Assembly (NCBI RefSeq): GCF_964194025.1
Contig: NC_134482.1
Span: 38,874,001 to 38,938,000 of the forward strand
Origin: Convolutriloba macropyga
Lineage: Eukaryota
Direction: 5' to 3'
DNA: 64,000 nucleotides
Program-made: the position numbers and the translations under genes
In this document: piece by piece, positions 1-56,184 of the stretch
Layout: every line of letters begins with the position of its first letter
How positions within the stretch are numbered: the stretch's first letter is position 1
Notes under the pieces: generated by a model
The model's input: the letters and a program-made list of their open reading frames with translations, nothing else
Told to the model about the DNA's origin: nothing
Database searches by the model: none

Positions 1-3000
1 AAATCAAATTACTTTCCTCCTGTTGCCTGAAGCTATTACACAAGTAATGGTTTCGAATGTTTAGACTCATAACGCAAGTTGTGGGTCGTCACATTCAATT
101 TGAATTTCTTTGAAATATATATTTTCATTCTTGTATAAATTTCAAATCATATGCTTAAAATCAAATTACTTTCCTCCTGTTGCCTGAAGCTATTACACAA
201 GTAATGGTTTCTAGTGTTTAGGCTCATAACGCAAGTTATGGGTCGTCACATTCCGGTTTGAATCTCTTTGGGATATATGTTAAATCTTGAAGTATAAATT
301 TTAAACTACTTGCATTAAATCTAATAACTTTCTTCTAGTTGCCTGAAGCTATTACACAAGTAATGGTTTCAAATGTTTAGACTCATAACGCAAGTTGTGG
401 GTCGTCACATTCAATTTGAATTTCTTTGAAATATATATTTTCATTCTTGTATAAATTTCAAATCATATGCTTAAAATCAAACTAATTTCCTCCTGTTGCC
501 TGAAGCTATTGCACAAGTAATGGTTTCTAGTGTTCAGGCTCATAACGCAAGTTGTGGGTCGTCACATTCAATTTGATTTTCTTTGAGATATGTATTTTCA
601 TTCTTGTGGTATAAATTTCAAAACATATGCTTAAAATCAAACTAATTTCCTCCTGTTGCCTGAAGCTATTGCACAAGTAATGGTTTCTAGTGTTTAGGCT
701 CATAACGCAAGTTATGGGTCGTCACATTCAATTTGAATTTCTTTGAAATATATATTTTCATTCTTGTATAAATTTCAAATCATATGCTTAAAATCAAATT
801 ACTTTCCTCCTGTTGCCTGAAGCTATTACACAAGTAATGGTTTCGAATGTTTAGACTCATAACGCAAGTTGTGGGTCGTCACATTCAATTTGAATTTCTT
901 TGAAATATATATTTTCATTCTTTTATAAATTTCAAATCATATGCTTAAAATCAAATTACTTTCCTCCTGTTGCCTGAAGCTATTACACAAGTAATGGTTT
1001 CTAGTGTTTAGGCTCATAACGCAAGTTATGGGTCGTCACATTCCGGTTTGAATCTCTTTGGGATATATGTTAAATCTTGAAGTATAAATTTTAAACTACT
1101 TGCATTAAATCTAATAACTTTCTTCTAGTTGCCTGAAGCTATTACACAAGTAATGGTTTCAAATGTTTAGACTCATAACGCAAGTTGTGGGTCGTCACAT
1201 TCAATTTGAAATTCTTTGAAATATATATTTTCATTCTTGCATAAATTTCAAATCATATGCTTAAAATCAAATTACTTTCCTCCTGTTGCCTGAAGCTGTT
1301 ACACAAGTAATGGTTTCTAGTGTTTAGGCTCATAACACAAGTTATGGGTTGTCACATGCCGGTTTGAATTCCTTTGAGATATATATTTTTATTCTTGTGG
1401 TATAAATTTCAAAACATATGTTTGAAATCAAATTACTTTCCTCCTGTTGCCTGAAGCTATTACACAAGTAATGGTTTCTAGTGTTTAGGTTCATAACGCA
1501 AGTTATGGGTCGTCACATTCCGGTTTGAATCTCTTTGGGATATAAGTTAAATCTTGAAGTATAAATTTTAAACTACTTGCATTAAATCTAATAACTTTCT
1601 TCTAGTTGCCTGAAGCTATTACACAAGTAATGGTTTCGAATGTTTAGACTCATAACGCAAGTTGTGGGTCGTCACATTCAATTTGAATTTCTTTGAAATA
1701 TATATTTTCATTCTTGTATAAATTTCAAAACATATGCTCGAAATCAAATTACTTTCCTCCTGTTGCCTGAAGCTGTTACACAAGTAATGGTTTCTAGTGT
1801 TTAGGCTCATAACACAAGTTATGGGTTGTCACATGCCGGTTTGAATTCCTTTGAGATATATACTTTTATTCTTGTGGTATAGATTTCAAAACATATGCTT
1901 GAAATCAAATTACTTTCCTCCTGTTGCCTGAAGCTTTTACACAAGTAATGGTTTCTAGTGTTTAGGCTCATAACGCAAGTTATGGGTCGTCACATTCAAT
2001 TTGAATTTCTTTGAGATATGTATTTTCATTCTTGTTGTATAAATTTCAAAACACATGCTTAAAATCAAACTAATTTCCTCCTGTTGCCTGAAGCTATTGC
2101 ACAGGTAATGGTTTCTAGTGTTTAGGCTCATAACGCAAGTTGTGGGTCGTCACATTCAATTTGAATTTCTTTGAGATATGTATTTTCATTCTTGTGGTAT
2201 AAATTGCAAAACATATGCTTAAAATCAAACTAATTTCCTGCTGTTGCCTGAAGCTATTGCACAAGTAATGGTTTCTAGTGTTTAGGCTCATAACGCAAGT
2301 TATGGGTCGTCATATTCAATTTGAATTTCTTTGAGATATATATTTTCATTCTTGTGGTATAAATTTCAAAACATATGCTTAAAATCAAACTAATTTCCTC
2401 CTGTTGCCTGAAGCTTTTACACAAGTAATGGTTTTGTAGTGTTTAGGCTCATAACGCAAGTTATGGGTCGTCATATTCCGGTTTGAATCCCTTTGGGATA
2501 TGTGTTAAATCTTGAAGTATAAATTTTAAACTACTTGCCTTAAATCTAATAACTTTCTTCTAGTTGCCTGAAGCTATTACACAAGTAATGGTTTCGAATG
2601 TTTAGACTCATAACGCAACCTGTGGGTCGTCACATTCAATTTGAATTTCTTTGAGATATGTATTTTCATTCTTGTGGTATAAATTTCAAAGAATATGCTT
2701 AAAATCAAACTAATTTCCTCCTGTTGCCTGAAGCTATTGCACAAGTAATGGTTTCTAGTGTTCAGGCTCATAACGCAAGTTATGGGTTGTCACATTCCGG
2801 TTTGAATTCCTTTGAGATATATACTTTCATTCTTGTGGTATAGATTTGAAAACATATGCTTGAAATCAAATTACTTTCCTCCTGTTGCCTGAAGCTTTTA
2901 CACAAGTAATGGTTTCTAGTGTTTAGGCTCATAACGCAAGTTATGGGTCGTCATATTCCGGTTTGAATCCCTTTGGGATATGTGTTAAAACTTGAAGTAT

Positions 3001-6000
3001 ATATTTGAAACTACTTGCCTTAAATCTAATAACTTTCTTCTAGTTGCCTGAAGCTATTACACAAGTAATGGTTTCGAATGTTTAGACTCATAACGCAAGT
3101 TGTGGGTCGTCACATTCAATTTGAATTTCTTTGAGATATATGTTAATTCTTGAGGTATAAATTTCAAAACATATGCTTAAAATCAAATTACTTTCCTCCT
3201 GTTGCCTGAAGCTATTACACAAGTAATGGTTTTTAGTGTTTAGGCTCATAACGCAAGTTATGGTTCGTCATTTTCCGGTTTGAATCCCTTTCGGATATGT
3301 GTTAAATCTTGAAGTATAAATTTTAAACTATTTGCCCAAAATCTAATAACTTTCTTCTAGTTGCCTGAAGCTAATACACAAGTAATGGTTTCTAGTGTTT
3401 AGGTTCATAACGCAAGTTATGGGTCGTCACATTCCGGTTTGAATCTATTTGGGATATATGTTAAATCTTGAAGTATAAATTTTAAACTACTTGCATTAAA
3501 TCTAATAACTTTCTTCTAGTTGCCTGAAGCTATTACACAAGTAATGGTTTCGAATGTTTAGACTCATAACGCAAGTTGTGGGTCGTCACATTCAATTTGA
3601 ATTTCTTTGAAATATATATTCATTCTTGTATAAATTTCAAAACATATGCTCGAAATCAAATTACTTTTCCTCCTGTTGCCTGAAGCTGTTACACAAGTAA
3701 TGGTTTCTAGTGTTTAGGCTCATAACACAAGTTATGGGTTGTCACATGCCGGTTTGGATTCCTTTGAGATATATTTTTTTATTCTTGTGTTATAAATTTC
3801 AAAACATATGCTTGAAATCAAATTACATTCCTCCTGTTGCCTGAAGCTATTACACAAGTAATGGTTTCTAGTGTTTAGGCTCATAACGCAAGTTATGGGT
3901 CGTCACATTCCGTTTTGAATCTCTTTGGGATATATGTTAAATCTTGAAGTATAAGTTTTAAACTTTTTGCACATAATCTAATAACTTTATTCTAGTTGCC
4001 TGAAGCTATTACTCAAGTAATGGTTTCGAATATTTAGACTCATAACGCAAGTTGTGGGTCGTCACATTCAATTTGAATTTCTTTGAAATATATATTCATT
4101 CTTGTATAAATTTCAAAACATATGCTCGAAATCAAATTACTTTCCTCCTGTTGCCTGAAGCTGTTACACAAGTAATGGTTTCTAGTGTTTAGGCTCATAA
4201 CACAAGTTATGGGTTGTCACATGCCGGTTTGGATTCCTTTGAGATATATTTTTTTATTCTTGTGGTATAAATTTCAAAACATATGCTTGAAATCAAATTA
4301 CTTTCCTCCTGTTGCCTGAAGCTATTACACAAGTAATGGTTTCTAGTGTTTAGGCTCATAACGCAAGTTATGGGTCGTCACATTCCGGTTTGAATCTCTT
4401 TGGGATATATGTTAAATCTTGAAGCATAAGTTTTAAACTTTTTGCACAAAATCTAATAACTTTATTCTAGTTGCCTGAAGCTATTACTCAAGTAATGGTT
4501 TCGAATGTTTAGACTCATAACGCAAGTTGTGGGTCGTCACATTCAATTTGAATTTCTTCGAGATATGTATTTTCATTCTTGAGGTATAAATTTCAAAACA
4601 TATGCTTTAAATCAAACTAATTTCCTCCTGTTGCCTGAAGCTATTGCACAAGTAATGGTTTCTAGTGTTTAGGCTCATAACGCAAGGTATGGGTTGTCAC
4701 ATTCCGGTTTGAATTCCTTTGAGATATATACTTTCATTTTTGTGGTATAGATTTCAAAACATATGCTTGAAATCAAATTACTTTCCTCCTGTTGCCTGAA
4801 GCTTTTACACAAGTAATGGTTTCTAGTGTTTAGGCTCATAACGCAAGTTATGGGTCGTCATATTCCGGTTTGAATCCCTTTGGGATATGTGTTAAATCTT
4901 GAAGTATAAATTTTAAACTACTTGCCTTAAATCTAATAACTTTCTTCTAGTTGCCTGAAGCTATTACACAAGTAATGGTTTCGAATGTTTAGACTCATAA
5001 CGCAAGTTGTGGGTCGTCACAATCAATTTGAATTTCTTTGAGATATATGTTAATTCTTGAGGTATAAATTTCAAAACATATGCTTAAAATCAAATTACTT
5101 TCCTCCTGTTGCCTGAAGCTATTACACAAGTAATGGTTTTTAGTGTTTAGGCTCATATCGCAAGTTATGGTTCGTCATTTTCCGGTTTGAATCCCTTTGG
5201 GATATGTGTTAAATCTTGAAGTATAAATTTTAAACTACTTGCCTTAAATCTAATAACTTTCTTCTAGTTGCCTGAAGCTATTACACAAGTAATGGTTTCG
5301 AATGTTTAGACTCATAACGCAAGTTGTGGGTCGTCACATTCAATTTGAATTTCTTTGAGATATGTGTTTTCATTCTTGTGGTATACATTTCAAAACATAT
5401 GCTTAAAATCAAATTACTTTCCTCCTGTTGCCTGAAGCTATTACACAAGTAATGGTTTCTAGTGTTTAGGCTCATAACGCAAGTTATGGGTCGTCACATT
5501 CCGGTTTCAATCTCTTTGGGATATAAGTTAAATCTTGAAGTATAAATTTTAAACTATTTGCCAAAAATCTAATAACTTTCTTTCTTGTTGCCTGAAGCTA
5601 TTACACAAGTAATGGTTTCGAATGTTTAGACTCATAACGAAAGTTGTGGGTCGTCACATTCAATTTGAATTTCTTTGAGATATAGGTTAATTCTTGAGGT
5701 ATAAATTTCAAAACATATGCTTAAAATCAAATTACTTTCCTCCTGTTGCCTAAAGCTATTACACAAGTAATTGTCTCTAGTATTTAGACTCATAACGCAA
5801 GTTATGGGTCGTCACATTCCGGTTTGAATCTCTTTGGGATATATGTTAAATCTTGAAGCATAAATTTTAAACTACTTGCATTAAAGCTAATAACTTTCTT
5901 CTAGTTGCCTGAAGCTATTACACAAGTAATGGTTTCGAATGTTTAGACTCATAACGCAAGTTGTGGGTCGTCACATTCAATTTGAATTTCTTTGAAATAT

Positions 6001-9000
6001 ATATTTTCATTCTTGTATAAATTTCAAATCATATGCTTAAAATCAAATTACTTTCCTCCTGTTGCCTGAAGCTATTACACAAGTAATGGTTTCTAGTGTT
6101 TAGGCTCATAACGCAAGTTATGGGTCGTCAGATTCCGGTTTGAATCTCCTTGGGATATATTTTAAATCTTGAAGTATTAATTTTAAACTATTTGCCAAAA
6201 ATCCAATAACTTCCTTTCTTGTTGGCTGAAGCTATTACACAAGTAATGGTTTCTAGTGTTTAGGCTCATAACGCAAGTTATGGGTCGTCATATTCCGGTT
6301 TGAATCCCTTTGGGATATGTGTTAAATCTTGAAGTATAAATTTTAAACTACTTGCCTTAAATCTAATAACTTTCTTCTAGTTGCCTGAAGCTATTACACA
6401 AGTAATGGTTTCGAATGTTTAGACTCATAACGCAAGTTGTGGGTCGTCACATTCAATTTGAATTTCTTTGAGATATATGTTAATTCTTGAGGTATAAATT
6501 TCAAAACATATGCTTAAAATCAAATTACTTTCCTCCTGTTGCCTGAAGCTATTACACAAGTAATGTTTTTAGTGTTTAGGCTCATATCGCAAGTTATGGT
6601 TCGTCATTTTCCGGTTTGAATCCCTTTGGGATATGTGTTAAATCTTGAAGTATAAATTTTAAACTACTTGCCTTAAATCTAATAACTTTCTTCTAGTTGC
6701 CTGAAGCTATTACACAAGTAATGGTTTCGAATGTTTAGACTCATAACGCAAGTTGTGGGTCGTCACATTCAATTTGAATTTCTTTGAGATATGTGTTTTC
6801 ATTCTTGTGGTATACATTTCAAAACATATGCTTAAAACCAAATTACTTTCCTCCTGTTGCCTGAAGCTATTACACAAGTAATGGTTTCTAGTGTTTAGGC
6901 TCATAACGCAAGTTATGGGTCGTCACATTCCGGTTTGAATCTCTTTGGGATATATGTTAAATCTTGAAGTATAAATTTTAAACTATTTGCCAAAAATCTA
7001 ATAACTTTCTTTCTTGTTGCCTGAAGCTATTACACAAGTAATGGTTTCGAATGTTTAGACTCATAACGAAAGTTGTGGGTCGTCACATTCAATTTGAATT
7101 TCTTTGAGATATAGGTTAATACTTGAGGTATAAATTTCAAAACATATGCTTAAAATCAAATTACTTTCCTCCTGTTGCCTAAAGCTATTACACAAGTAAT
7201 TGTCTCTAGTATTTAGACTCATAACGCAAGTCATGGGTCGTCACATTCCGGTTTGAATCTCTTTGGGATATATGTTAAATCTTGAAGCATAAATTTTAAA
7301 CTACTTGCATTAAAGCTAATAACTTTCTTCTAGTTGCCTGAAGCTATTACACAAGTAATGGTTTCGAATGTTTAGACTCATAACGCAAGTTGTGGGTCGT
7401 CACATTCAATTTGAATTTCTTTGAAATATATATTTTCATTCTTGTATAAATTTCAAATCATATGCTTAAAATCAAATTACTTTCCTCCTGTTGCCTGAAG
7501 CTATTACACAAGTAATGGTTTCTAGTGTTTAGGCTCATAACGCAAGTTATGGGTCGTCAGATTCCGGTTTGAATCTCCTTGGGATATATTTTAAATCTTG
7601 AAGTATAAATTTTAAACTATTTGCCAAAAATCCAATAACTTCCTTTCTTGTTGGCTGAAGCTATTACACAAGTAATGGTTTCGAATGTTTAGATTCATAA
7701 CGCAAGTTATGGTTCGTCACATTCAATTTGAGTTTCTTAGAGATAAATGTTAATTCTTGAGGTATAATTTTCAAAACATGCCTAAAATCAAATTACTTCT
7801 AGTTGCCTGAAGCTATTACACAAGTAATGGTTTCGAAAGTTTAGACTCATAACGCAAGTTGTGGGTCGTCACATTCAATTTGAGTTTCTTTGAATTAAAT
7901 GCTAATTATTGAGGTATAATTTTCAAAACATGCCTAAAATGAAATTAATTTCCTCCTGCTGCCTGAAGCTATTACACAAGTAATGGTTTCTAGTGTTTAG
8001 GCTCATAACGCAAGTTATGGGTCGTCACATTCAATTTGAGTTTCTTTGAATTAAATGCTAAGTATTGAGGTATAATTTTCAAAACATGCCTAAAATCAAA
8101 TTAATTTCCTCCTGTTGCCTGAAGCTATTACACAAGTAATGGTTTCTAGTGTTTAGGCTCATAACGCAAGTTATGGGTCGTCACATTCAATTTGAGTTTC
8201 TTCGAATTAAATGCTAATTATTCAGGTATAATTTTCAAAACATGCCTAAAATCAAATTAATTTCCTCGTATTGCCTGAAGCTATTACACAAGTAATGGTT
8301 TCTAGTGTTTAGGCTCATAACGCAAGTTATGGGTCGTCACATTCAATTTGAGTTTCTTTGAATTAAATGCTAAAATCAAATTAATTTCCTCCTGTTGCCT
8401 GAAGCTATTACACAAGTAATGGTTTCTAGTGTTTAGGCTCATAACGCAAGTTATGGGTCGTCACATTCAATTTGAGTTTCTTTGAATTAAATGCTAAGTA
8501 TTGAGGTATAATTTTCAAAACATGCCTAAAATCAAATTAATTTCCTCCTGTTGCCTGAAGCTATTACACAAGTAATGGTTTCTAGTGTTTAGGCTCATAA
8601 CGCAAGTTATGGGTCGTCACATTCAATTTGAGTTTCTTCGAATTAAATGCTAATTATTTAGGTATAATTTTCAAAACATGCCTAAAATCAAATTAATTTC
8701 CTCGTGTTGCCTGAAGCTATTACACAAGTAATGGTTTCTAGTGTTTAGGCTCATAACGCAAGTTATGGGTCGTCACATTCAATTTGAGTTTCTTTGAATT
8801 AAATGCTAAAATCAAATTAATTTCCTCCTGTTGCCTGAAGCTATTACACAAGTAATGGTTTCTAGTGTTTAGGCTCATAACGCAAGTTATGGGTCGTCAC
8901 ATTCAATTTGAGTTTCTTCGAATTAAATGCTAATTATTTAGGTATAATTTTCAAAACATGCCTAAAATCAAATTAATTTCCTCCTGTTGCCTGAAGCTAT

Positions 9001-9270
9001 TACACAAGTAATGGTTTCTAGTGTTTAGGCTCATAACGCAAGTTATGGGTCGTCACATTCAATTTGAGTTTCTTTGAATTAAATGCTAAGTATTGAGGTA
9101 TAATTTTCAAAACATGCCTAAAATCAAACTAATTTCCTCCTGTTGCCTGAAGCTATTACACAAGTAATGGTTTCGAATGTTTAGACTCATAACGCAAGTT
9201 GTGGGTCCTCACATTCAATTTGATTTTCTTTGAGATATATTTTAATTCTTGAGGTTTAAATTTATACGAT
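1..9270 (+). repeat. Tandem satellite array, ~156-160 bp monomer, ~58 copies, three monomer subtypes with higher-order repeats; continues off the left edge
   Basis: Core GTTGCCTGAAGCTATTACACAAGTAATGGTTTC...CTCATAACGCAAGTT(A/G)TGGGTCGTCACATT recurs at 22, 179, 338 and so on (e.g. 2403, 2563, 2723), the last near 9142. The remaining ~85 bp alternates between an A type (CAATTTGAATTTC...TTCCTCCT) and a B type (CCGGTTTGAATC...TTCTTCTA); a C type (~156 bp) occupies ~7740-9140. Confidence 0.97.
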
Positions 9271-9280
9271 ATCTTATTAT

Positions 9281-9895
9281 ATGATTTTCTTTGAGGTTAA
9301 TGTTCAGTATTGTTTCTCTTTCCTTAGACAAGAATCGTATTCGTCGGAGATTCTAATCTCCGTGATGCTGAGGGGCTGCTTGCTCTAAACGAGCGAGTTC
9401 GCCGTTATCGGTAAGTATTGTGTTATGTTGTTGGCTTTATCATGTAAATTTACTGACTTTTCTCTTGCTTTTTGCAGCCCGTCTTATAATTGCCAGGGCG
9501 GCCGGAGATCCATTCATCTCAGAGCATTGACCAGTGATCTTCTGAAATACACTCACGTTTTCATCATTTGCGGTGACAACGATTTAAACTCATCGAAAGT
9601 TGACGAAATCTGTAGAAACTTTGAATATGTCATTAAAGCGCTGCATCCGCGCATTGTTAGATTTAGTGGCTTTTTGCCCAGAGCGGATTTTGATCCGGAT
9701 CTGAGGACTAAAAGTAATCTTTATTTAGCTGAAAAGCTTAAAGATAGATACAAAAGCCCGAGACTTATAAAGAAAAGCGACTTTGACGCGAAGGGTAGAG
9801 ACAAGTTTCACCTTCGGCACACAAAAAATGGACTCAATCACATGATGCAGCACTGTTTAAGCTTTCTAGTTGACTCTTTTGGTGAATTACTATAA
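9281..9895 (+). CDS. Spliced SGNH/GDSL-family hydrolase (esterase/lipase fold), ~170 aa; exons 9328-9410 and 9478-9895, with a tentative first exon 9281-9295
   Basis: Exon 9328-9410 follows ...tttccttag and reads TRIVFVGDSNLRDAEG...RRYR (block I GDS). The 67 nt intron 9411-9477 has GTAAGT, a TACTGAC branch point, a pyrimidine tract and CAG, and joins in frame to the 9425-9895 ORF: PSYNCQGG (block II G), HVFIICGDND (block III GxND), GRDKFHL (block V DxxH). The start is uncertain: ATG at 9281 plus a 32 nt GT-AG intron (9296-9327) is in frame. Confidence 0.85.
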
Positions 9896-10045
9896 AAACT
9901 GAGCTTTAAATATGAGCTTCTGAAAAACTGAGCTATCTGAACTCTTCCTTTGTAGTTGTTCTAAAAGATTTCTTTGTAATTGCAATCTTCTGCCTTGTGT
10001 TTTTCTTTCTTTAGGGGAAGAAGATGCAGCAACATTTGATCCGCT

Positions 10046-10462
10046 NNNNNNNNNNNNNNNNNNNNNNNNNNNNNNNNNNNNNNNNNNNNNNNNNNNNNNN
10101 NNNNNNNNNNNNNNNNNNNNNNNNNNNNNNNNNNNNNNNNNNNNNNNNNNNNNNNNNNNNNNNNNNNNNNNNNNNNNNNNNNNNNNNNNNNNNNNNNNNN
10201 NNNNNNNNNNNNNNNNNNNNNNNNNNNNNNNNNNNNNNNNNNNNNNNNNNNNNNNNNNNNNNNNNANNNNNNNNNNNNNNNNNNNNNNNNNNNNNNNNNN
10301 NNNNNNNNNNNNNNNNNNNNNNNNNNNNNNNNNNNNNNNNNNNNNNNNNNNNNNNNNNNNNNNNNNNNNNNNNNNNNNNNNNNNNNNNNNNNNNNNNNNN
10401 NNNNNNNNNNNNNNNNNNNNNNNNNNNNNNNNNNNNNNNNNNNNNNNNNNNNNNNNNNNNNN
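10046..10462. other. Assembly gap (N run)
   Basis: Run of N with a single called base. Confidence 0.99.
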
Positions 10463-10935
10463 TATTCCCATTATTATTTCACTTTTATTATAATTTTTTT
10501 GTTGTTCGTCCTATTCTTTCTCTTTTTCTTGTTCTTGTTCTTCTATTCTTAATTTTTTATTCTTCTTGTTTTTGTTCCNNNNNNNNNNNNNNNNNNNNNN
10601 NNNNNNNNNNNNNNNNNNNNNNNNNNNNNNNNNNNNNNNNNNNNNNNNNNNNNNNNNNNNNNNNNNNNNNNNNNNNNNNNNNNNNNNNNNNNNNNNNNNN
10701 NNNNNNNNNNNNGTTATTATTTTTATTATTTTTTTATTATTGTTTTTAATTTTATTATTCTTATTCTTATTATTCTCATTATTAGATCACTTATATTATA
10801 ATTTTTTTGTTGTTTGTCTTATTCTTTCTCTTATTCTTGGTCTTATTCTTCGTCTTATTCTTAATTTTTTATTCTTCGTGTTTTTGTTCCAATTTTTATT
10901 CTTCTCAGCATTCGTATTCTTTTTCTTATTACTAT
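10463..10935. repeat. Low-complexity (TTA/TTC/TTG)n tract; a similar tract lies at ~11375-11630
   Basis: Degenerate triplet repeats that produce the spurious poly-L/F/I ORFs. Confidence 0.85.
10579..10712. other. Assembly gap (N run)
   Basis: Run of N. Confidence 0.99.
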
Positions 10936-10939
10936 CATT

Positions 10940-11950
10940 TGCAAAAGATATTGCGATCAAGATTTTTGTGAAAGAAGATATTGCAATCGGTATTTTTGCG
11001 AAAGATTTTGCGATCGAAATATTCCAAAAGATATTGCGATGAAAAGTTTTGCGAAAGATAGTGCGCTCAAAAGTATTGCGGAAGAAATTGCGATCAAAAT
11101 ATTGCAACCGAGTTTTGCGAAAGAAGTTATTGAGACCGAATTTTTTTGTTGAAGAAGATATTGCGGTCGAAATTTTCGATAAGCAGTATCTTGTTTTGCA
11201 ATATCTTTGCCAATATTTTGATTCCATTGCCTTCTTTCGTAAATTCGTTAGCAATAACATTTTTCGCAAAATGTTTTATTGCAGCATCGTGTGCAAAATC
11301 TTTGCTCTATTTTGATCAGAATATCTTCATTTGCAAAAACTTCCGTCGCAATATCTTTCGCAAATTTTGTTTGATTTGTTTTTATTAATATATTAATATT
11401 TTTACGATTTTTATTTTTGGAAATTACTATTACTATTATTGTTGCTGTTGTTCTTCTTATCATTGTTCTTATTTTTATTGTTTTTATTATTATTCTTATT
11501 TTTTCTGTTACTCTTATTCTTGTTCTCCTTGTTCTTGTTCTTATTCTTCTTCTAATTCTTGTTTTCTGTGTTATTCTGCTTCTTGTTTTTGTTCTTATTC
11601 CTATTCGTTTTCTTACTCTTACCATTATTATTTGCAAAAGATATTACGGTCAGAATTTTTGTGAAAGACGATTTTGTGATCGAAATTATTGCAAAAAAAT
11701 TTTGCGAAAGAAGATATTGCGATTGAAATTTTTGCGAAAGAACATATTGCGATCAAATTGTTTGCGAAAGAAGATATAGCGATTAAAATATTGCGAACAA
11801 TTTTTGCGAGAGAAGATATAGCGATTGAAGTATTGCAAACGACTTATGTGAAAGCAGATATTGCGGTCAAAACTTTTCCGAAAGAACATATTGTGGAAGA
11901 AGATATTGCGATAAAATTGTTTGCGAAAGAAGATATAGCGATTAAATTAA
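10940..11950. repeat. Degenerate ~30-33 bp minisatellite (GCGAAAGAAGATATTGCGAT...) in both orientations, interrupted by a low-complexity tract
   Basis: Motif on + at ~10940-11180 and ~11630-11950; inverted copies (CGCAATATCTT) at ~11190-11370. Confidence 0.8.
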
Positions 11951-14605
11951 TACGATGTTCGTATGTTTCTTTAGTGTGTTCTCGTTTTCTTCGGTTTTTT
12001 TTTCGTTCTGACCCCAAAAACCTTAAACCATAGTCAATTAGGTCTTAAAAGACAAGCATTTTTGTGTTTGGGGTCAAAAACGAAAAAAAAATTAACTCTG
12101 ATGACTTTATTTTTAAACGCGATGTTCATATGTTTCTTTACTGTGTTCTCGTTTTCTTCTGTTTTTCTTCGTTCTGACCCCAGAAACAGTAAATCATAGT
12201 CAATTTGGTCTTGAAAAACTAGGATTTTCATTTTTGGGTTCAAAAACGAAATAAAATCAACTCTATTGTCTTTATTTTTAAATACGATGTTCATATGTTT
12301 CTATAGTGTGTTCTTGTTTTCTTTGATGTTTTTATGTTCTGAACCCAAAATCTTAAATCATATTCAATTTGGTCTTAAAAGACTAGCTTTTTTGTGTTTG
12401 GGGTCAGAAACGAAAAAAAAATCACCGCTTTTGACTTTATTTTTAAATACGATGTTCGTATGTTTCTTTAGTGTGTTCTCGTTTTCTTCGGTTTTTTTTT
12501 CGTTCTGACCCCAAAAACCTTAAACCATAGTCAATTAGGTCTTAAAAGACAAGCATTTTTGTGTTTGGGTCAAAAACGAAAAAAAAATTAACTCTGATGA
12601 CTTTATTTTAAACGCGATGTTCATATGTTTCTTTACTGTGTTCTCGTTTTCTTCTGTTTTTCTTCGTTCTGACCCCAAAAACAATAAATCATAGTCAATT
12701 TGGTCTCGAAAAACTAGGATTTTCATTTTTGGGTTCAAAAACGAAATAAAATCAACTCTATTGTCTTTAATTTTAAATACGATGTTCATATGTTTCTATA
12801 GTGTGTTCTTGTTTTCTTTGATGTTTTTATGTTCTGAACCCAAAATCTTAAATCATATTCAATTTGGTCTTAAAAGACTAGCTTTTTTGTGTTTGGGGTC
12901 AGAAACGAAAAAAAATCACCGCTTTTGACTTTATTTTGAAATAAGATGTTCGTATGTTTCCTTAGTGTGTTCTCGTTTTCTTCGGTTTTTTTTTCGTTCT
13001 GACCCCAAAAACCTTAAACAATAGTCAATTAGGTCTTAAAAGACAAGCATTTTTGTGTTTGGGGTCAAAAACGAAAAAAAATTAACTCTGATGACTTTAT
13101 TTTTAAACGCGATGTTCATATGTTTCTTTACTGTGTTCTCGTTTTCTTCTGTTTTTCTTCGTTCTGACCCCAGAAACAATAAATCATAGTCAATTTGGTC
13201 TTGAAAAACTAGGATTTTCATTTTTGGGTTCAAAAACGAAATAAAATCAACTCTATTGTCTTTATTTTTAAATACGATGTTCATATGTTTCTATAGTGTG
13301 TTCTTGTTTTCTTTGATGTTTTTATGTTCTGAACCCAAAATCTTAAATCATAATCAATCTGGTCTTAAAAGACTAGCTTTTTTGTGTTTGGGGTCAAAAA
13401 CGAAAAAAAAATCACCGCTTTTGACTTTATTTTTAAATACGATGTTCGTATGTTTCTTTAGTGTGTTCTCGTTTTGTTTGGTTTTTTTTTCGTTCTGACC
13501 CCAAACAGTTTAAATCATAACCAATTTTGTCTTAAAAGAAAAGCATTTTTGTGTTTGGGGTCAAAAACGAAAAAAAAATCAGTTCTGATGCCTTTATATT
13601 TTGAATACGATGCCTCTATTCTTCTTTTTCGTGTTCTTCTTTAGCTGTTTTTTTTTCGTTTTGACCCAAAAACCGTCTAATAATACTTTACTTGCCTTTA
13701 AAAAACGACTAATTTTTCTCTGGGTCAAAAACGAAAAAAAAAATCAGCTCTGATGCCTTTATATTTTGAATACGATGCCTCTATTTTTCTTTTTCGAGTT
13801 CTTCTTTAGCTGTTTTTTTTTCCGTTTTGACCCAAAAACCGTCTAATAATACTTTACTTGCCTTTAAAAAATGATTAATTTTTCTCTGGGTCAAAAACGA
13901 AAAAAAAACCAGTTCTGATGCCTTTATATTTTGAATACGATGCCTCTATTTTTCTTTTTCGTGTTCTTCTTTAGCTGTTTTTTTTTCGTTTTGACCCAAA
14001 AACCGTCTAATAATACTTTACTTGCCTTTAAAAAACGATTAATTTTTCTCTGGGTCAAAAACGAAAAAAAAAATCAGCTCTGATGCCTTTATATTTTGAA
14101 TACGATGCCTCTATTTTTCTTTTTCGTGTTCTTCTTTAGCTGTTTTTTTTGTTTTGACCCAAAAACCGTCTAATAATACTTTACTTGCCTTTAAAAAATG
14201 ATTAATTTTTCTCTGGGTCAAAAACGAAAAAAAAATCAGCTCTGATGCCTTTATATTTTGAATACGATGCCTCTATTTTTCTTTTTCGTGTTCTTCTTTA
14301 GCTGCTTTTTTTTCGTTTTGACCCAAAAACCGTCTAATAATACTTTACTTGCCTTTAAAAAACGACTAATTTTTCTCTGGGTCAAAAACGAAAAAAAAAT
14401 CAGCTCTGATGCCTTTATATTTTGAATACGATGCCTCTATTTTTCTTTTTCCTGTTCTTCTTTAGCCGTTTTTTTTGTTTTGACCCAAAAACCGTCTAAT
14501 AATACTTTACTTGCCTTTAAAAAATGATTAATTTTTCTCTGGGTCAAAAACGAAAAAAAAATCAGCTCTGATGCCTTTATATTTTGAATACGATGCCTCT
14601 ATTTT
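11950..14605. repeat. Tandem satellite, ~165 bp monomer, ~16 copies, each monomer with an internal inverted repeat; two subfamilies
   Basis: TACGATG-type anchor at 11951, ~12118, 12283, 12448 ... 13606, 13771, 13936, 14101, 14263, 14427, 14589. Arms TTTTTTCGTT(C/T)TGACCC and GGGTCAAAAACGAAAAAA occur in each unit. 11950-13600 is a ~496 bp trimer HOR; 13600-14605 is a homogeneous second variant. Confidence 0.95.
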
Positions 14606-14774: not shown

Positions 14775-15240
14775 CGGCCATTTTTGACGTTTTTTCGATC
14801 AGTTTTGACCTTTTTTTCGGCTATTTTTGACCTTTTTTTCGGCCATTTTTGACGTTTTTTCGATCAGTTTTGACCTTTTTTTCGGCTATTTTTGACATTT
14901 TTTTCGGCCATTTTGGACGTTTTTTCGATCAGTTTTGACCTTTTTTTCGCCTATTTTTGACCTTTTTTTCGGCCATTTTTGACGTTTTTTCGATCAGTTT
15001 TGACCTTTTTTTCGGCTATTTTTGACCTTTTTTTCGGCCATTTTTGACGTTTTTTCGATCAGTTTTGACCTTTTTTTCGGCTATTTTTGACCTTTTTTTC
15101 GGCCATTTTCGACGTTTTTTCGATCAGTTTTGACCTTTTTTTTTCGGCTATTTTTGACCTTTTTTTCGGCCATTTTTGACGTTTTTTCGATCAGTTTTGA
15201 CCTTTTTTTCGGCTATTTTTGACCTTTTTTTCGGCCATTT
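14775..15240. repeat. 65 bp minisatellite (three ~21-22 bp subunits), ~7 copies
   Basis: GGCCATTT recurs at ~65 bp spacing from 14776 to 15233. Confidence 0.95.
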
Positions 15241-15242
15241 GA

Positions 15243-15475
15243 GACTGGATTAAGACTTGGCAAGTCTTGGCCAAGACTTGGATTAAGACTTGCCAAGTCT
15301 TGGCCAAGACTTGGGTTAAGACTTGGCAAGTCTTGGCCAAGACTTGGATTAAGACTTGGCAAGTCTTGGCCAAGACTTGGATTAAGACTTGGCAAGTCTT
15401 GGCCAAGACTTGGATTAAGACTTGCCAAGTCTTGGCCAAGACTTGGATTAAGACTTGCCAAGTCTTGGCCAAGTC
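15243..15475. repeat. 33 bp palindromic minisatellite, ~7 copies
   Basis: Unit GACTTGGATTAAGACTTG(G/C)CAAGTCTTGGCCAA; the array contains the perfect palindrome CAAGTCTTGGCCAAGACTTG. Confidence 0.95.
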
Positions 15476-15875
15476 TGACAAGTCTTAAATGTGTTATGAT
15501 CATAGCTCTGAATCAGTACTGATACCTAGACTTGCAATTAGACTTGCCCAGTACTGATATTGACTTGGCGTTAAGTACGGGACTGTAACAAAGACAAATG
15601 GTGAATATTCTTTGTCGGTATAACTTTCAATAAAACGTTCAATAAATGAAAATCAAAATTGAACGAGTCAATTTTGTATTTATAATTTTAGCTGGCTGTT
15701 TTTCATTTCAGCTGGAGGTTGGAAAACAAAATTGAAATGCAAATTCAGATTCTGCTTCAATTTTTCTGTTTAACCATGAATCATTGAAATAGTGAAAAAA
15801 TGTTACATTGATCCTTTAAAAAAAGGAAATGAAACTATTTCTCTGGTAATTGATCCAACGTCATCAAACTCAAAC

Positions 15876-16071
15876 CTTGTACGAGAACCATTTCGGCATC
15901 TTTGTTCACTGCTAAACAATCCTGTTTTGTCTTTTCCAGTCCCTCTGCATTGCGACCATTGAGACAGAGTTTTGTGATTCCCTTTTCCACAAATTTCACA
16001 GCCGTCTCTTGTCCTATCCCAGAACTAGCTCCAGTTATTATCAGCACTTTCTCATCAGAGAACAGTTTCAT
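15876..16071 (-). CDS. SDR paralog A, exon 1 only (downstream exons not found in window)
   Basis: MKLFSDEKVLIITGASSGIGQETA...VLVQ G|GTTTGA; TGxxxGIG Rossmann motif; 196 nt like the other exon 1 copies; frame intact. Confidence 0.8.
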
Positions 16072-19000
16072 GATTATTTTTCTAACTCTAACAATCAATA
16101 AAATTTAAATTGAGGCGTGATAGTTTGTGTGATTATGAAACAAAAATTTGAGAGAAAAGTCAACAAGTTATTAGGTTGAATTATAGGGTCAGTTTGTTCA
16201 AAACTTTAATGTTATAAATCGGTAAACTGAAGGTTTATAACTGTAAATGTTCAAAACGTAATCTTAAAGCCACAAACTTTGCAAACATCGATCAACTTTT
16301 GTTGGTTGAGTAAATATCACAATATCTTTTCAGGCGGAGTTTTTGGATGCAGGCAACACAGCAATTATTCTTCAGATAAGAACAGGAACTCCCCTTTTGT
16401 ATATTCGAATTATGTCCAAGGCCTAAGTCGAAATCGACGACAAATTTGGTTTCAAAATTTAAAAACAAAATTTTGTTGACATGGATTGTCATCTCATTCA
16501 TAACCCAGGTTGCCCATTTTACTTAGAACTTTGAAAAATAAGAATGAAAACTTATACTTATACTAAGTATCAAAGTAATTAGTACTTTTATAATAACTAG
16601 TGAAGATACTTATGCGTAGAAAACGTCCAAAACTTAGTAAGTCTCTATGTATAAAGTCTTGCCATGATTTCAACGGAACCGTACCCAAAAATGTTACGTT
16701 CTGGTTTTCAAAATATGACCTCATAAAATCAATATTAAAAATAAGGTTCAATTCAATTGAGTTATATTTTCATAATTTTTTACCAGCTAGCTTTTTTTAA
16801 CAATAAGGAAACAAAATGTATCATAGCATTTGTGGTGACGTCACAACATTAAAAGATCGAAAGAGATTAGATCGAAAACATTAAGATTGTGAGAGTAAAG
16901 CAAAAATATATATTTTTTGTTGCTTATTATTGCAATTTATTGCAAGCTTAAACATAAGATTATAGCGTATGGCCTAACGAGCAATAGCTATACCGCAGCA
17001 GCTTGTGGAATTTGATATGAATCTATTGAAACGGAACATATTGCCACGACCGAATATGTTTTGCGCCCAATCTGCGCCTTGAATAAATTTGTTTTCGATC
17101 TGTTGTCCAAATTTTCCTTTTCGATCTGCTTTCTTTTGATCTTCGTCATCACTGCACCATCATTTAAAAATTCTACTTTTTTATTTGAAATGTTTGCACC
17201 ATTTGCCTGTTTGTCGACAAAAGCGCCATTGACCCTTGATCGACGCAATGATACCCAAATTTGGGTCCCAGCTTGAATCAAATATGTCCAGACGAAAAAT
17301 GAGGGCTTCGTGCGCTCAAAATGACATAGTATAGAAACATCGAAAAAAGCACAAAAATCTCTGGCCCTTTGATATGTACGCCCGAAAGTCTGAAAAACTT
17401 GCGAAAGTCTGACATGAACGCACGAAAATCTAAAATGTTCTTGTGCTCATAATTAGACTTTCGTCTGTTTATGTCCAAACTTAGGTGCATTCATGGTCAA
17501 ATTGTAGTGCGTTCATGTCTTTAATTAAGTGCATTCATGTTCATGTACGCACCAAAAAAAACTTAACTTTTTGGGGCTTGCAAGTATCCATTATAGATGA
17601 GAAAAAGAAGTTACTTTTTTAAAAAATTTGTTCTAGATTTCTGAAACTAACATAAACATATAGCATCACGTCAAACTCATCAAACGGACACAAAACAAAA
17701 AGGCACCGATCGAGAAAGCATTAGACACAATATGCAGTAGAGAAACGCAAAACCGCCCAATTTTATTTACGTGTTTTGAAAAAAAATACAGGAAAATTAC
17801 AAAAATCTAAGTCTTGCTCCTAGACAAGATAGACTAATTTTTTTGTTGACTTCATTTTCATTGTGAAACTTCTATACAAAAACAAATATCTAGGCGCACA
17901 AAAGTTTGGACATTATTGCACAAAACTCTGATGATAGCATGAAATTCTGGGCATAAATTCATCCCGTCTTGTTATAGACACTTGCTGTCCGGTATGGTCT
18001 TTAAATACTTGCTTCCGTATGGGGCCTCAACGTGGTTATAGTTTAGAAAAAGATCAAACCTGTCCGCGACTCGTGCTGAAAACAGTCTCAAAAAGGAGGA
18101 CGCCCTCCCATTGGCTCGATTACTTCAAACATAAAAATTTAAGCCCTGCATTCAAAAGTCGACTCTGACATCTAGAAAAAACACGCAATAGAGCACTGAG
18201 AAATGTTTGATTTGTAAAACTCTATCAAAAGTTCAACTCAATTTCTTTTAACAATTGTTGTTTGCGTTAAAAGACATAAAAATATTTTGACTGGCAGAAG
18301 TTTCAGAAAAATTCTCAATTTTTTTTTACCTTGCGCAGTGTATTTACAATCTCAAAATTTTCAAACTTTTGTTATTAAGGAAACACACAACTTACTTATT
18401 ATTTTCAGTGGTTGGCACAAGCTCTGTTTTCATAAGGTATCCTTGATGCACACTTTTTTAAAACTTTCTTTATATGTATAATCTACGAAATTATAGCCCC
18501 CACCCTAATGATATATTTACAGTAATTGGTGGGGAGGGAGTTGAGGTTAACTTTATATGATCACAGAACAGTGGTTTTATATTTAACGATCCCTTAAAAT
18601 AAAAGGACGGGGCTCCACATGCTAAAAATCAAGTGTCGATTTCTAGAACAGTCGACAACAGGCGCTTTTATATTAATGACTGGTACCAACCAATTTTAAT
18701 TTGCACTGTTAGCTACCAAGTCTAGTTTTACACCATAGCAGCTGAGCAGTTTAGGATCTTTTTTCGTTTGGCCCCAGATATACAGAGCACCTGCTGTTAG
18801 ATATTAAGACAATAAGAAATATATTTTATCGTGCTGTAGGGGGCTCAGGTAGTACTAAAAAAAACAAGCTTGCAGTTTATCAAGCTAATAGAGTTCATAC
18901 GCCATGAGAGCTTTGGTGCAGCGGACAGACCGTGGTTCTCGTTTCATGATTGACCATACGGATTGACCATACAATCTAATAAAGTGATTGACCATACGGA

Positions 19001-20320
19001 TCTATTCTGTTTCTGTTCCCCCCCCCCCCCAGCTTAGTGGGCTTATATTTTTTTTGCGCCCCCAGGCGCACGTGCTATTTTTTACATGGTAACGTGCTAT
19101 ATAACAATAGATAAATTGTAACTGTGATAAAACACTGGGCGAAAACAGAATAGTTCCGATCATACACACAAACTCGGTCCAAGTGGACGTTTGTAATTCT
19201 ATCAAAAATCACAATAGTCGGTCAAGCAAAAAATGGATGAAGAAAATTTCTAGTTTCTTCATTCCGTTATAAGCCTGAGGATCACACTTGAGACCAAATG
19301 GCTAAACATTTTTTTAACATTTTTTTGAGACCAACTGAAAATAAAGTAAAGTTTTTACTTTCTTTTATTCTTGAATTAATTTCGAAGAAATGGGCTTTTT
19401 AACTACAGTGAAAGAAATCTTACATAAGGCGTCCAATTCTTTAAACTTTTGACAATGAATTATGATATTTGAATGCATAAAATTAAATGCATGTTCTAGT
19501 AAGCTTAACGGAATAAAGCCATGACCTCAATTTCTCAGATTTAAAATACTCGAAGCAAAATTATTCTTCACAAGAGTTTCTGTGAGCTTCTTTTCGATGT
19601 CCCCCTTGGAATTTTTTTATACTAATTTGAAAAATAATAAATTAATTTATTAAAAAGTAATAGACCGATCAAAAATTTACTGACCGATGGTTTTCAAGAT
19701 CTGCTATCACTTTTTAGGTATTATTCATGTTTCAGAAGTCTCAAGGGAAAACATTGAAATTGATGAAATTTATTTGATTTGTCTTTAATTTTTTTGTGCC
19801 CTTTCAATGGCAAGTGTCATTGCCCAAATAGAATAACTCAATATTTTGGTTTTTCCCATGAAAGATTTGTTTTAATTATCAACTCGTTCTTATAAGTCTT
19901 ACTGTCCATAACTGTTCTTCCGATTTGACTTATACATTTGTAAAGGGGGGAATGGTGATGAAATATTGACCTTTTCATAAAGAATATGATGAGATTCTGC
20001 ATTTGTCCTTAAAATTCAACAAAAAATTGCCACAATGTTTAATAACAATCAAGTGCGGTCTAAAACGATAAATGTTTAAAAATTCTCAAAATTAGTCATT
20101 CCTCTACAAATTTGACAATTTGTGTTCTCTATGTTGACAGATTTGGCGGGGGTCTATAATGGGAAAAGTACTGAATTTTATATCAATTTATGATGTGTAG
20201 AAAAGATTCTGGATACGTTTTTTCTGAGTTAATCTAAGGTGTACTTCAGAGAAGTTCGAAGTTTTTTCCTTTGCGACAATGATTGAAGTTTATCTGCTCA
20301 TCCATCTTGCTCTTTAGTTT

Positions 20321-20541
20321 TTACTGCCAGACGTTTCTGCATGCTAGACCTCCATCTTGTAAAACCGAAGAACCGTTCAGGAAATTCGCTTCATCGGATG
20401 CTAAGAATACAACCAACTTAGCCACATCTTCCCCGGTTCCGTTTCTCCCCAATGGAGTTAGTTTCCTAAGATTATCCCAATATGGCTCCACGACTTCTTT
20501 TGGAAGACCCATCCTCTCAACGAAATTTGTCTCAACGACTC
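20321..20541 (-). CDS. SDR paralog B, exon 3 (last); whole gene 36788-20321, 261 aa classical SDR oxidoreductase
   Basis: aaag|GA GTC GTT GAG ACA: (G)VVETNF...TPLGRNGTGEDVAKLVVFLASDEANFLNGSSVLQDGG...stop; 221 nt in all three paralogs. Confidence 0.9.
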
Positions 20542-20579
20542 CTTTGAGTATTTTTAACAGACAAGCAATTATTGACGAT

Positions 20580-20730
20580 CTACCCTAGACGAACTCCGAC
20601 GCTTATCTTGCAAGATCTTGCAAGATTCTTGCAAATGACACTTATCTTGCAAGATGCAAGATCCGGACGCCTATATTGCAAGAATCTTACAAGATCTTGC
20701 AAGATAGACGTCGAAAAATCTTAAAGAAAA
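20580..20730. mobile_element. MITE-like fragment built of TCTTGCAAGA palindromes; related patches near 36290-36350, 38160-38270 and 62260-62330
   Basis: Clustered TCTTGCAAGA palindromes; termini not resolved. Confidence 0.45.
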
Positions 20731-21451
20731 AATTGCAATTTTAAAGACCGATTAACTCAAAAATCATGTTCTCTTATGAGTTATCTTAAGACCACTCTTC
20801 AATCTTGGAGAAAAATATACTCTTATAATTTATGCTGTTTACATACTTGTCTTTGAGGTATCCATTGAAATAAAGTTCAATTTAAATTTGTAGAATGTCA
20901 ATCAGATTGAAATTTTATAAACACATCTCAAAACATATTTATGTAGACAGAACAAAAATTGGGAAAATTAATTCTGTAAAACTGAAATTTAAACAAAGCG
21001 TTAACAAAGCATATAAAAACGAAGCATAAAAGATTAATATAATGAGAACCCTGGAAGCGATCCTGAGAAGGAATACATTCTTCATGTAAGATTCTTGCAA
21101 CATTATAAATCAATCCTCTGTTATTATCTAAAGGTTGATTTTGAATACATTTCGGAAGATTCCTGCATGATCTGAAGTGACAAAGTTTTTCATCTGGATT
21201 CCTCGACTACTTTCAGAAGTCATTTAAATAATTTTTAAATCACGCTATGCGAAACATAATAGAAACTGTCAGTAATGAATGTACTGAAACAAACTACAGA
21301 AGTACAATTTTTCGCTGTAACGTTTAAAAAACGTACTTGTACAGTTTTTCAAAAAAGAACAAAAAAAACTTGAAACAACCGAGCTAAACAAAAAACAGAC
21401 AATGTTGCTCAGCAAAGAAAATTGAAACAAAAATTGCTTGTCAAAATTTCC

Positions 21452-21820
21452 CTGGGCTAATACTGTTAGCCCGAATCCCATTTTTTCCTTCTTCAATTGT
21501 AATACACCGTGTGAACATATCCAAGGCTGCCTTGCTCATACAGTAGAACGCGTGATTCGGTACCGGGTTTGTAGCAAGAACCGAGGAATTGTTCACAATA
21601 TTCCCTTTAGTTAGTCTCAAATACGGAATGCAAAGTTTGGTCAATTTGACAGCCATTTTGAGATTGATGTCAAAAACTGTTTCGTAAGAATCCATCGAGG
21701 GGTCAACAAGAGGTGCCCCGACTGACATTCCAGCATTGTTGAACAAAATGTCGATTTGTCCAAATTTATCGATAGTTTCTTTCACTATGTTTTCACACAC
21801 ACCGTCTGCTTGTAGATCAC
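21452..21820 (-). CDS. SDR paralog B, exon 2
   Basis: ttctgttcag|GT GAT CTA: (G)DLQADGVCE...ILFNNAG...NNSS...YCMSK...RANSISP(G); catalytic N-S-Y-K motifs; 369 nt; followed by a GG donor. Confidence 0.92.
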
Positions 21821-22586
21821 CTGAACAGAAAAATTGGCAAACATCTATAAGACGATTTAAAAGAATTTTATTTCAATATCAAAATGAAATTGCGTTTCAA
21901 TTATAAATTGAAAAATAGAAATGTTGAGTATCATTTGTGAGATTTGATGTTTTTGAGGACAACTTTTGCTTGTTTCGGGAGGAATCAATTGGCAAATATG
22001 AGATAATAATCTTTTTGCCGACAATTTTTGACAGTAAAGCTTCAGAAAGTAAATTGGAGAATTTTAGTTTTTTTGTTTGTTTAAAGGTTAATGAAACTGA
22101 ATTTTAAAAATTTTTGCCCCTTGCTAGATAGACATAGATCTAGACTTACTATAAAAATCTTAAAATCTGAAGAAAAAGAAAGGTTGCAGTACACAAAACT
22201 TTTTAATGATGTGGTATGTCTTAGTTCTACAATATTCTGCATGCACTAAACTGAACATTTTGATGACAGAACATTTATTAAGCTGTAATAACAAAAACCA
22301 AAACAATTTGTAGATGCAGTAGTTCATAAACAAATAGATTTAAGTGAAAAAGTTGTCGTCAAAATAAATTTTTGTTGTTCAATAAAACGTGATGCTGACA
22401 CTTAAATTGTTTATCTCTGATTGGTCATAAAAAGTTTTTTAACAGCAAGCTCAAATTTTCTTAGAAAATGTCATAGTCAGTAGTGGTCGGTTCGTACATT
22501 GGTAGATAATTAAAGCATCCTAATGCATCTCTTAGTAATACGGGCCGTAATTTTGACTACCAGCAGAGATAAATAAATATAAGAAA

Positions 22587-25544: not shown

Positions 25545-25601
<57 letters not shown>

Positions 25602-55400: not shown

Positions 55401-56184
55401 TGATTTTACATAAGTACAAGCCTGGCAAATGGTTTGGCCTAAAGTCTGCTCTTGACCAATGTCTGGCCAATGTTCTTGACAGCTGTGTGCTCAGATTCTG
55501 CTTGGTATTGCTGTTCAGTCTGCCCAATCGTCTTGAAAACATTCTGCCTGATGGTCCGGACAACGGCCTAGCCTAGTGTCTTTTCGGTCTGGCGAACGTT
55601 ACGGACAAAGTCGGTTTACTCTGACCAATGGTCGCCAATGTCTGTTTGCTCTGGCCAAGAGCAGCCAAAGTCTGTTCGGTCTGGCCAATAACTAACTGTG
55701 GGTATAGTCGGCCTGGAGCCCCTGTTCCCAATCTAAGTCTTTCAAGCCATTACTCGCCTTGAGTTGCTGACTCCTTCCTTAAGAACAGTTCCAAGAACTT
55801 GGGGGTATAATATAAATATCAAAGTTTTTGTACCAGTTGTTTTTTCATAAAATTATGTTTTTTAGACATTTGGCCACAATTTTACCGTAGCTGGCGCATT
55901 TAAAAAGCTTTCGAACAAGTTCGAAGAAATGCAACTAATAGACTATTACATTACCCAGAAAACACACGTGAAACACAAGAAATCACTGTACCCAGAAAAC
56001 ACAAGTAGTTCTATTATTAGAGAGTCCTTTCATGAATTAAACGTGCTAACAGCAAGCGCTTATAAAAAACGAGCAGGAGTCTGATCACGGCTGAGTATTG
56101 TCTGAATGGGTTTGATCATGACTCATTAAAGTCTGGATGGGTCTGATCATTAACGCCCACCTCAATATTAGTACAGTTTCTCAA

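Follow-up and report, generated by a model that had tools for sequence, protein, structure and literature searches.

Described systems give three points of comparison for the locus reported here. For CMC transposons, C(2)C and H(3-4)H motifs have been defined, and 5′-CA..TG-3′ termini are typical of most CMCT lineages (PMC12730594, in the sections cited). Esterases of the SGNH/GDSL type have been reported in non-long-terminal-repeat (non-LTR) retrotransposons (ORF1 proteins of ZfL2-1, CR1 and RTEX), in LTR elements (bdelloid ORF3) and in Penelope-like elements (PMC3905857, PMC5408684), and the sections cited of these two papers make no mention of DNA transposons as carriers. Finally, satellite repeats within DNA transposons are commonly regarded as junk or as protein-binding DNA. 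Here we analyse 64,000 nucleotides of Convolutriloba macropyga (contig NC_134482.1, positions 38,874,001 to 38,938,000), called the window, in which a tandem array of hairpins runs into a gene for an SGNH hydrolase. Both are internal to a CMC/EnSpm (CACTA) DNA transposon, and the hairpin pattern points to a selected RNA structure. Neither SGNH cargo in CACTA/EnSpm elements nor hairpin arrays in DNA transposons turned out to be described in the parts of the open-access literature covered (repeat databases such as Repbase aside), and we present the gene and the structured sense-strand array as two additions to the CMC/EnSpm type.

Array and SGNH gene inside a CMC/EnSpm transposon

The copy in the window measures 32,063 bp, and three other copies measure 21-24 kb. 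Its parts follow in the order ORF1 (multi-exon), transposase, array and SGNH gene. The right end, at window position 15581, is common to 7 of 7 copies with unrelated flanks; the left end lies at G000:C16:38857519. Left and right terminal inverted repeats (TIRs; the right one at 15542-15581) match over 35 of 40 nt, and a 2-bp target-site duplication (TSD) flanks all four copies with both ends (AC, CT, TA and TA), with AC on both sides of this copy (15582-15583). The first 600 nt of the element contain the subterminal motif CAAGTC/GACTTG 9 times, and its last 600 nt contain it 25 times. The termini are CCC..GGG and not CA..TG; animal EnSpm families often end in CCC. We conclude that the element is a recently spread cut-and-paste transposon.

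The transposase frame of 1030 amino acids is open in three other copies and interrupted by one stop in this copy. It matches the profiles of DUF1258 (E=1.5e-11, above the cut-off), SET (E=3e-6) and Transposase_21 (E=3e-4, below the cut-off), and contains CxxC (CHFC) and HxxxH (HSLRH) motifs. ORF1, queried as single exons, gave no Pfam BEN match. An earlier note on this DNA had suggested looking for a transposase, reverse transcriptase (RT) or Rep-helicase gene: a DDE transposase was indeed found, but the element is neither a CR1/L2 element nor a Helitron. We also rejected an identity of the SGNH protein as a CR1/L2 ORF1p esterase, since its neighbour is a DDE transposase inside TIRs and there is no RT-bearing ORF2 arrangement.

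The array occupies positions 1-9263 of the window (+ strand) and begins upstream of it, at G000:C16:38870840, 134 nt past the transposase stop. Its monomers are of 156-161 bp, about 78 of them in 12.4 kb in total; the part that lies in the window, up to about 9263, has 59 anchored monomers, of 124-161 bp. Each combines a two-hairpin core of about 73 nt with a variable U-rich spacer, and mean identity is 92.4% in the core versus 78.4% in the spacer (56 monomers). The acceptor at 9327 comes 64 bp after the end of the array, in agreement with the decay of the last monomer into the gene within about 60 bp that the earlier note had described.

Exon 1 of the SGNH gene (9328-9410, +) has a phase-0 acceptor and no ATG, and carries G-D-S with the catalytic Ser codon at 9352-9354. 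It is followed by a GT-AG intron of 67 nt (9411-9477, +), found at the same position in the related families A, B and C, and by exon 2 (9478-9895, +), which holds blocks II, III and V (GG, G-D-N-D and D-K-F-H) and ends in a stop at 9893-9895. The order of array and same-strand gene, the coordinates and the S, G, N and D/H motifs given in the earlier note are hereby confirmed. Past the stop there is a further pyrimidine-tract AG acceptor (9995-10014, +), also present in two B copies (L029, L030); in B families it opens onto simple or 30-bp repeats with long frames, possibly a further exon.

The window protein itself has no Pfam match. Its exon 2 gave 150 scored matches among 678 candidates in its own genome, and a profile of 25 SGNH copies recovered 85 relatives. 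Lipase_GDSL_2 was matched, below the cut-off, by 15 of the 59 members of a widened alignment, whose matches in PDB include GDSL lipases and PAF-acetylhydrolase, with the ZfL2-1 ORF1 esterase (4C1B) at E=1.4. Exon 2 modelled alone gave a poor fold (predicted local distance difference test, pLDDT, 41), and an intronless homologue, P0066 (31% identical to exon 2), gave a model with pLDDT 93.6. In the search for nearest structures that the earlier note had proposed, this model matched SGNH esterases best (Foldseek E=1.7e-8, Z 16.9, rmsd 2.1, 154 aligned), with OSK (5A4A) below them (Z 13.3, rmsd 3.0, 154 aligned). The SGNH call is made because of the motifs, the profile matches and the homologue's model, and the predicted SGNH fold of the window gene is thus supported.

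Among 28 family-A copies, the GDS block is kept in 27, GDND in 24 and DxxH in 26, and 21 copies are fully open; in C families the block-V Asp varies. The ratio of nonsynonymous to synonymous substitution rates (dN/dS) is about 0.09 for family A against B135, with dS saturated in 15 other pairs. Judged from these alignments, the gene is under purifying selection and likely encodes an active accessory esterase. It is likely ancestral to the clade. No related locus was found in the metagenome contigs scanned (viral contigs were not scanned).

We then compared the linkage of gene, array and transposase across families. In family A, to which the window element belongs, the 3′ ends of the transposase and the SGNH acceptors number 31 each and form 29 pairs in the same orientation, 3.95-15.2 kb apart. 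One of the two unpaired acceptors abuts an assembly gap and the other is a tandem copy; two of the transposase ends are without an SGNH partner. The monomer core lies directly upstream in 30/30 best loci. Genome-wide there are 825 exact matches to the core motif, versus 878 expected if it were confined to the 29 paired arrays, so free arrays are not common. In B families (60-74% amino-acid identity), 20/20 loci fetched read transposase-array-SGNH, with periods of 111-433 bp. The earlier note's suggestion that array and gene are cargo of a large mobile element therefore stands, on these top loci and B loci and on the TIRs, TSD and transposase.

In C families (35-44% amino-acid identity), where 14 of 23 loci were extended, all nine loci with a transposase have a sense-strand hairpin array, eight of them between ORF1 and transposase and one after the transposase. 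At C loci without a transposase the SGNH gene is present and the hairpin array is found in 0/5. SGNH genes with no transposase within 18 kb are those at L076, L083, L086, L087 and L059, and an unextended locus (L071) has a 5′-truncated transposase and no array within 8.5 kb. The right end at L087 resembles that of the C_1313 element, and some of these loci may be non-autonomous derivatives that keep only SGNH.

A tree of 26 transposase fragments separates 18 hairpin-bearing rows from 8 hairpin-free rows at 100/100. Among the hairpin-bearing rows the array lies 3′ of the transposase in 7/18 and 5′ in 11/18, and its position requires at least two changes on this tree, which are weakly supported. 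Based on the distribution over A, B, C and distant loci, the array follows the transposase and not the SGNH gene. Accordingly, an array does precede other SGNH copies in families A and B, but the dedicated array-plus-SGNH unit of the earlier note fails at the five C loci that lack both transposase and array, at eight distant loci with SGNH and no hairpins, and at the eight of nine transposase-bearing C loci whose array is 5′ of the transposase and not beside SGNH. Either SGNH predates the array, or the distant clade has lost its array.

Elements of this distant clade (L133-L152) carry satellites of about 180 bp and about 174 bp near their ends, common across families. At L143/L144 (G000:C15:25976500), the frames upstream of an intronless SGNH relative have what we take to be protein-primed PolB-like motifs, a context that suggests the same SGNH cargo in a Polinton-like element.

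Hairpins of the array

The earlier note had called the array structured, and the folding of its sense strand goes well beyond shuffled controls. As sense RNA, the monomer core has z = -6.3 and -7.0 (0/200 shuffles), versus -0.8 and -2.1 for the antisense; spacers give 0.0 and -1.7. With DNA folding parameters the effect is weaker (sense z of -2.8 and -3.2 versus about -1.2). For example, hairpin 1 at 8993-9018 (+) has 11 bp, loop ACAA and two fixed G.U pairs, and hairpin 2 at 9020-9059 (+) has 10 bp and loop GCAA and stands on a 3x3 internal loop with an outer stem of 5-6 bp. The strand that folds also encodes all three element genes. The 165-, 355-, 65- and 33-bp satellites of the same element have no such hairpins.

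Across families, arrays run from a stop codon to about 15-150 nt before the following acceptor, on either side of the transposase. They are 0.5-15 kb long and hold tens of hairpins, with periods of 62-307 bp, unrelated spacers and the same loop class. By a detection that is blind to strand and loop, 21 arrays yielded 27 distinct recurrent hairpins. Loops of the form R[C/G]WR number 16 on the sense strand versus 2 on the antisense (5% in shuffles), and the non-Watson-Crick pairs are 31 G.U, 7 A.C and 22 other (shuffles 61% G.U, p=0.005). Four of the 21 arrays have no recurrent hairpin under the detection rule; three of these do not adjoin a transposase and the fourth has a stem of 6-7 bp.

Within family A, we compared pair variants in 455 monomers from 7 copies. 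Pair types at a frequency of at least 5% comprise 11 G.U, 0 A.C and 2 other, while the rarer ones comprise 6 G.U, 17 A.C and 43 other (common versus rare, Fisher p=9e-5). Mutation in other parts of the element is strand-symmetric (37:43 and 24:21), so the G.U bias is not mutational. As many as four different arm sequences occur under the same loop class in one family. Between families whose transposases are 41-66% identical the arms covary, and the 4-nt loop stays R[C/G]WR. In an alignment of 24 chosen hairpins, 90% of cells pair and 9/10 stem positions change on both sides.

No Rfam covariance model matched the arrays at E<=10, and a scan of 6 loci at E<=1 gave no family, with 6 sub-threshold hits that are all outside the hairpin arrays. 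Hammerhead, twister, pistol, hepatitis delta virus-like and H/ACA RNAs were rejected in a by-eye check against their consensus sequences, their core letters not being kept across families.

Possible roles of the array

Judging from sequence, we lean towards a reading in which the array is a series of tandem sense-strand hairpins that would act in the element's RNA as docking sites and control processing at the transposase boundary. The array would be transcribed together with the same-strand genes, each of which would begin at a splice acceptor that serves either cis-splicing or the host spliced leader (SL). A putative protein would read the stem length (about 10 bp) and the R[C/G]WR loop, and many bound copies could tune splice choice, 3′-end formation or cleavage, or read-through between neighbouring genes. 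A narrower version, which we hold only tentatively and think improbable, resembles the MS2 system: in a clade of animal elements, tens of tetraloop hairpins near the transposase would be bound by an element-encoded protein (SGNH or ORF1), and the ribonucleoprotein (RNP) would choose transposase or accessory mRNA from an operon-like transcript.

The starts of the genes bear on this processing. The AG acceptor lies 2-5 nt upstream of the transposase ATG in 27/27 rows, and SGNH exon 1 opens at a phase-0 acceptor in all families. An ATG directly follows the AG in 11/17 C loci with exon 1 found and in 0/17 B loci, and several distant-clade SGNH genes have an ATG 0-5 nt past an AG; from these ATGs, the SGNH gene was ancestrally stand-alone. 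ORF1 has phase-0 donors, and an ORF1-SGNH fusion in the A and B families is possible from the exon phases. For a transposase-SGNH fusion, no conserved phase-0 consensus donor was found in four transposase frames; one donor site, 304 nt in, is common to three of them. A search for longer fused SGNH forms gave a single match, an apparent intron read-through and weak evidence.

The earlier note had pointed to an ATG exon at 9281, resembling monomer sequence, as the only in-frame one nearby. Both ATGATTTTCTTTGAG at 9281 and TGATTTTCTTTGAG at 9221 are present, and we judge the micro-exon (9281-9295, +) to be a derived copy of a monomer tail and probably not the start. It would require a 32-nt intron and has no counterpart in B families. 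Among 28 family-A copies the ATG is kept in 26, out of frame in one of them, and absent from the two most diverged.

An SL sequence has been published for an acoel (PMC9911081, in the part cited). The genome studied here holds the acoel SL at 2,580 places, 1,274 of them followed by GT, including a tandem gene cluster. Since the host genome has SL genes, operon-like processing is possible. As a donor of the AUG the leader was rejected: it lacks an AUG itself, and an in-frame TAG stands at its end. Nor is the array a set of SL RNA genes, the SL motif being absent from the window and the element loci checked and the true SL genes clustering elsewhere. The energy of an SL-monomer duplex is no better than in shuffles.

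Several side observations concern the SL itself. At L177 (G000:C9:23191300-23197900) the SL RNA genes form a tandem cluster with a unit of about 1.26 kb. The second stem-loop of the SL RNA has a 10-bp stem, a C-GUUA-G loop and an outer stem, a geometry like that of array hairpin 2. Monomers of B204 have GTTA as one variant of their loop, and mimicry of the SL RNA stem-loop is possible. Many dispersed leader copies without a following GT are likely retroposed trans-spliced mRNAs, and some leader copies are in tandem (L111-L116).

The main rival to RNA docking sites is that the hairpins are palindromic duplex-DNA sites for an element DNA-binding protein (ORF1), and that tandem repetition has built them up into a VANC-type platform for anti-silencing or enhancer function. 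VANC motifs build up by tandem repeats in non-coding parts of VANDAL elements (PMC5735166, in the part cited), the arrays here directly precede genes, a SET domain is part of the transposase, and the C-family arms resemble the A/B subterminal motif. Duplex sites, on the other hand, predict equal G.T and A.C variants and the common variants stand at 11:0; an oriented loop is kept while the arms change, up to four arms in one family; the family-A subterminal motif occurs once in the 12.4 kb of its own array, and the C_1265 right-end motif differs from that of the C_1265 array. We regard this rival as unlikely. Ranked below it, and doubtful, is binding of the RNA hairpins by the SGNH protein in the manner of the Oskar OSK domain, with the RNP localising or autoregulating element transcripts. 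All hairpin-bearing families examined carry SGNH, binding in trans requires no adjacency, OSK aligns to the homologue's model, and family-A exon 2 has a net charge of +8. Yet SGNH occurs without hairpins at the eight distant loci, its charge ranges from -6 to +15 among hairpin-bearing families and does not track hairpin presence, and active esterases score above OSK. In addition, the catalytic residues are kept here whereas OSK lacks the triad (PMC10792757), and for the ZfL2-1 esterase no binding to oligo(A) RNA was seen (PMC3905857), both according to the parts cited. The SGNH protein is thus probably not the hairpin reader.

Hairpins may also form in single-stranded DNA, on the non-template strand or in a cruciform, and be read by a recombinase or nuclease, as integron attC sites and IS200/IS605 ends are. 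The strand-specific folding does persist with DNA parameters. Nevertheless, no HUH or tyrosine-recombinase match was found among the element frames scanned, no cassettes lie between the repeats, and we know of no single-stranded intermediate in cut-and-paste transposition; we consider this very unlikely. Least probable of all is an ordinary internal satellite in which palindromes seeded slippage without any function. The element's other satellites without hairpins and the highly variable array length would fit it, but not the conservation of the core above the spacer, the frequency dependence of the G.U bias, or one loop class over unrelated spacers with such different periods.

A number of results weigh against hairpins selected as RNA docking sites. 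Four A.C variants, at stem ends, reach 10-16 of the 455 monomers. The 24 aligned hairpins were picked for pairing, so their covariation is partly circular, and the loop consensus was derived from the same data used to test it; because of this, and because monomers and families share ancestry, the p-values overstate the case and the pattern is what we go by. C-family arms contain CAAGT...ACTTG, like the A/B subterminal DNA motif. Family-A arrays differ about 4-fold in length and B copies have only 4-10 monomers, so copy number is loosely constrained. Eight of the ten distant intronless-SGNH loci have a transposase of about 30% identity upstream and no recurrent R[C/G]WR hairpins (of the remaining two, one is next to polymerase-like frames and the context of the other is not clear). 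Finally, the SGNH exons of families A and B lack an ATG, and no coding exon was found upstream of them.

If the docking-site reading is true, cut-and-paste elements would have an RNA-level layer of control and a natural multivalent hairpin tag. The SGNH cargo, known from several retroelement classes and linked to membranes, extends to DNA transposons, in which it has no obvious role at membranes. Both questions lend themselves to direct tests, as the enzyme is a stand-alone protein of about 170 amino acids and the RNA is 73 nt long.

Flanking features and comparison with known systems

Downstream of the SGNH gene, the element continues with a segment of low complexity and 15-45-bp repeats (10046-11948; a 3-bp-period simple repeat in other copies), a 165-bp internal satellite without R[C/G]WR hairpins (11949-14595), and subterminal repeats of 65 bp and 33 bp with the CAAGTC motif in both orientations (14775-15473). 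Its left arm (L032:4283-10000) holds 355-bp repeats and a reverse-strand fragment like a LINE 3′ end, duplicated in this copy. The insertion is antisense to SDR, between two in-phase SDR exons, as the earlier note's placement within an SDR cluster had it. The first coding exon lies at 15876-16071 (-) and the next, in phase, past the element's other end; the two presumably form one gene with the element in its intron. Additional SDR exons on the minus strand, a paralogue cluster, are found at 15835-21872. Elsewhere in the window, broken frames at 25504-27394 look by eye like LTR-retrotransposon pol, and a separate tandem array of about 91 bp lies at 56177-57954; similar 94/187-bp arrays flank another element copy.

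With described CMC/EnSpm (CACTA) elements the transposon shares TIRs, subterminal repeats, a 2-bp TSD, a DDE transposase of the DUF1258/Transposase_21 type, a second ORF and internal satellites. It differs in its CCC ends, in the SET domain fused to the transposase, and in having a third gene, the SGNH hydrolase, and a sense-strand hairpin array beside the transposase. Like the retroelement esterases, it brings a catalytically intact SGNH domain onto a mobile element; unlike them, the carrier is a DNA transposon and the gene is stand-alone, of about 165-180 amino acids, in many families. With the Oskar OSK domain the protein shares the predicted SGNH fold, but it keeps Ser and His whereas OSK is described as lacking the triad, and it has no LOTUS domain. 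An Oskar-like gene in adintoviruses was not borne out, as oskar, SGNH and esterase gave 0 matches in the part of PMC8502044 that was covered.

For the array, two known systems come closest. As in the VANC/VANDAL system (PMC5735166, in the part cited), short motifs are tandemly amplified in non-coding parts of a DNA transposon and diverge between families; VANC sites, however, are described there as linear duplex motifs, whereas here pairing and loop are kept on one strand while the arms change. The Ur element of nematode operons (PMC7668243, in the part cited) is a comparable case: a signal between cistrons, upstream of an acceptor, in hosts that trans-splice an SL. Unlike the array, Ur is a single short motif about 50 nt from the acceptor, in gaps of about 100-200 nt, and offers only a loose analogy.

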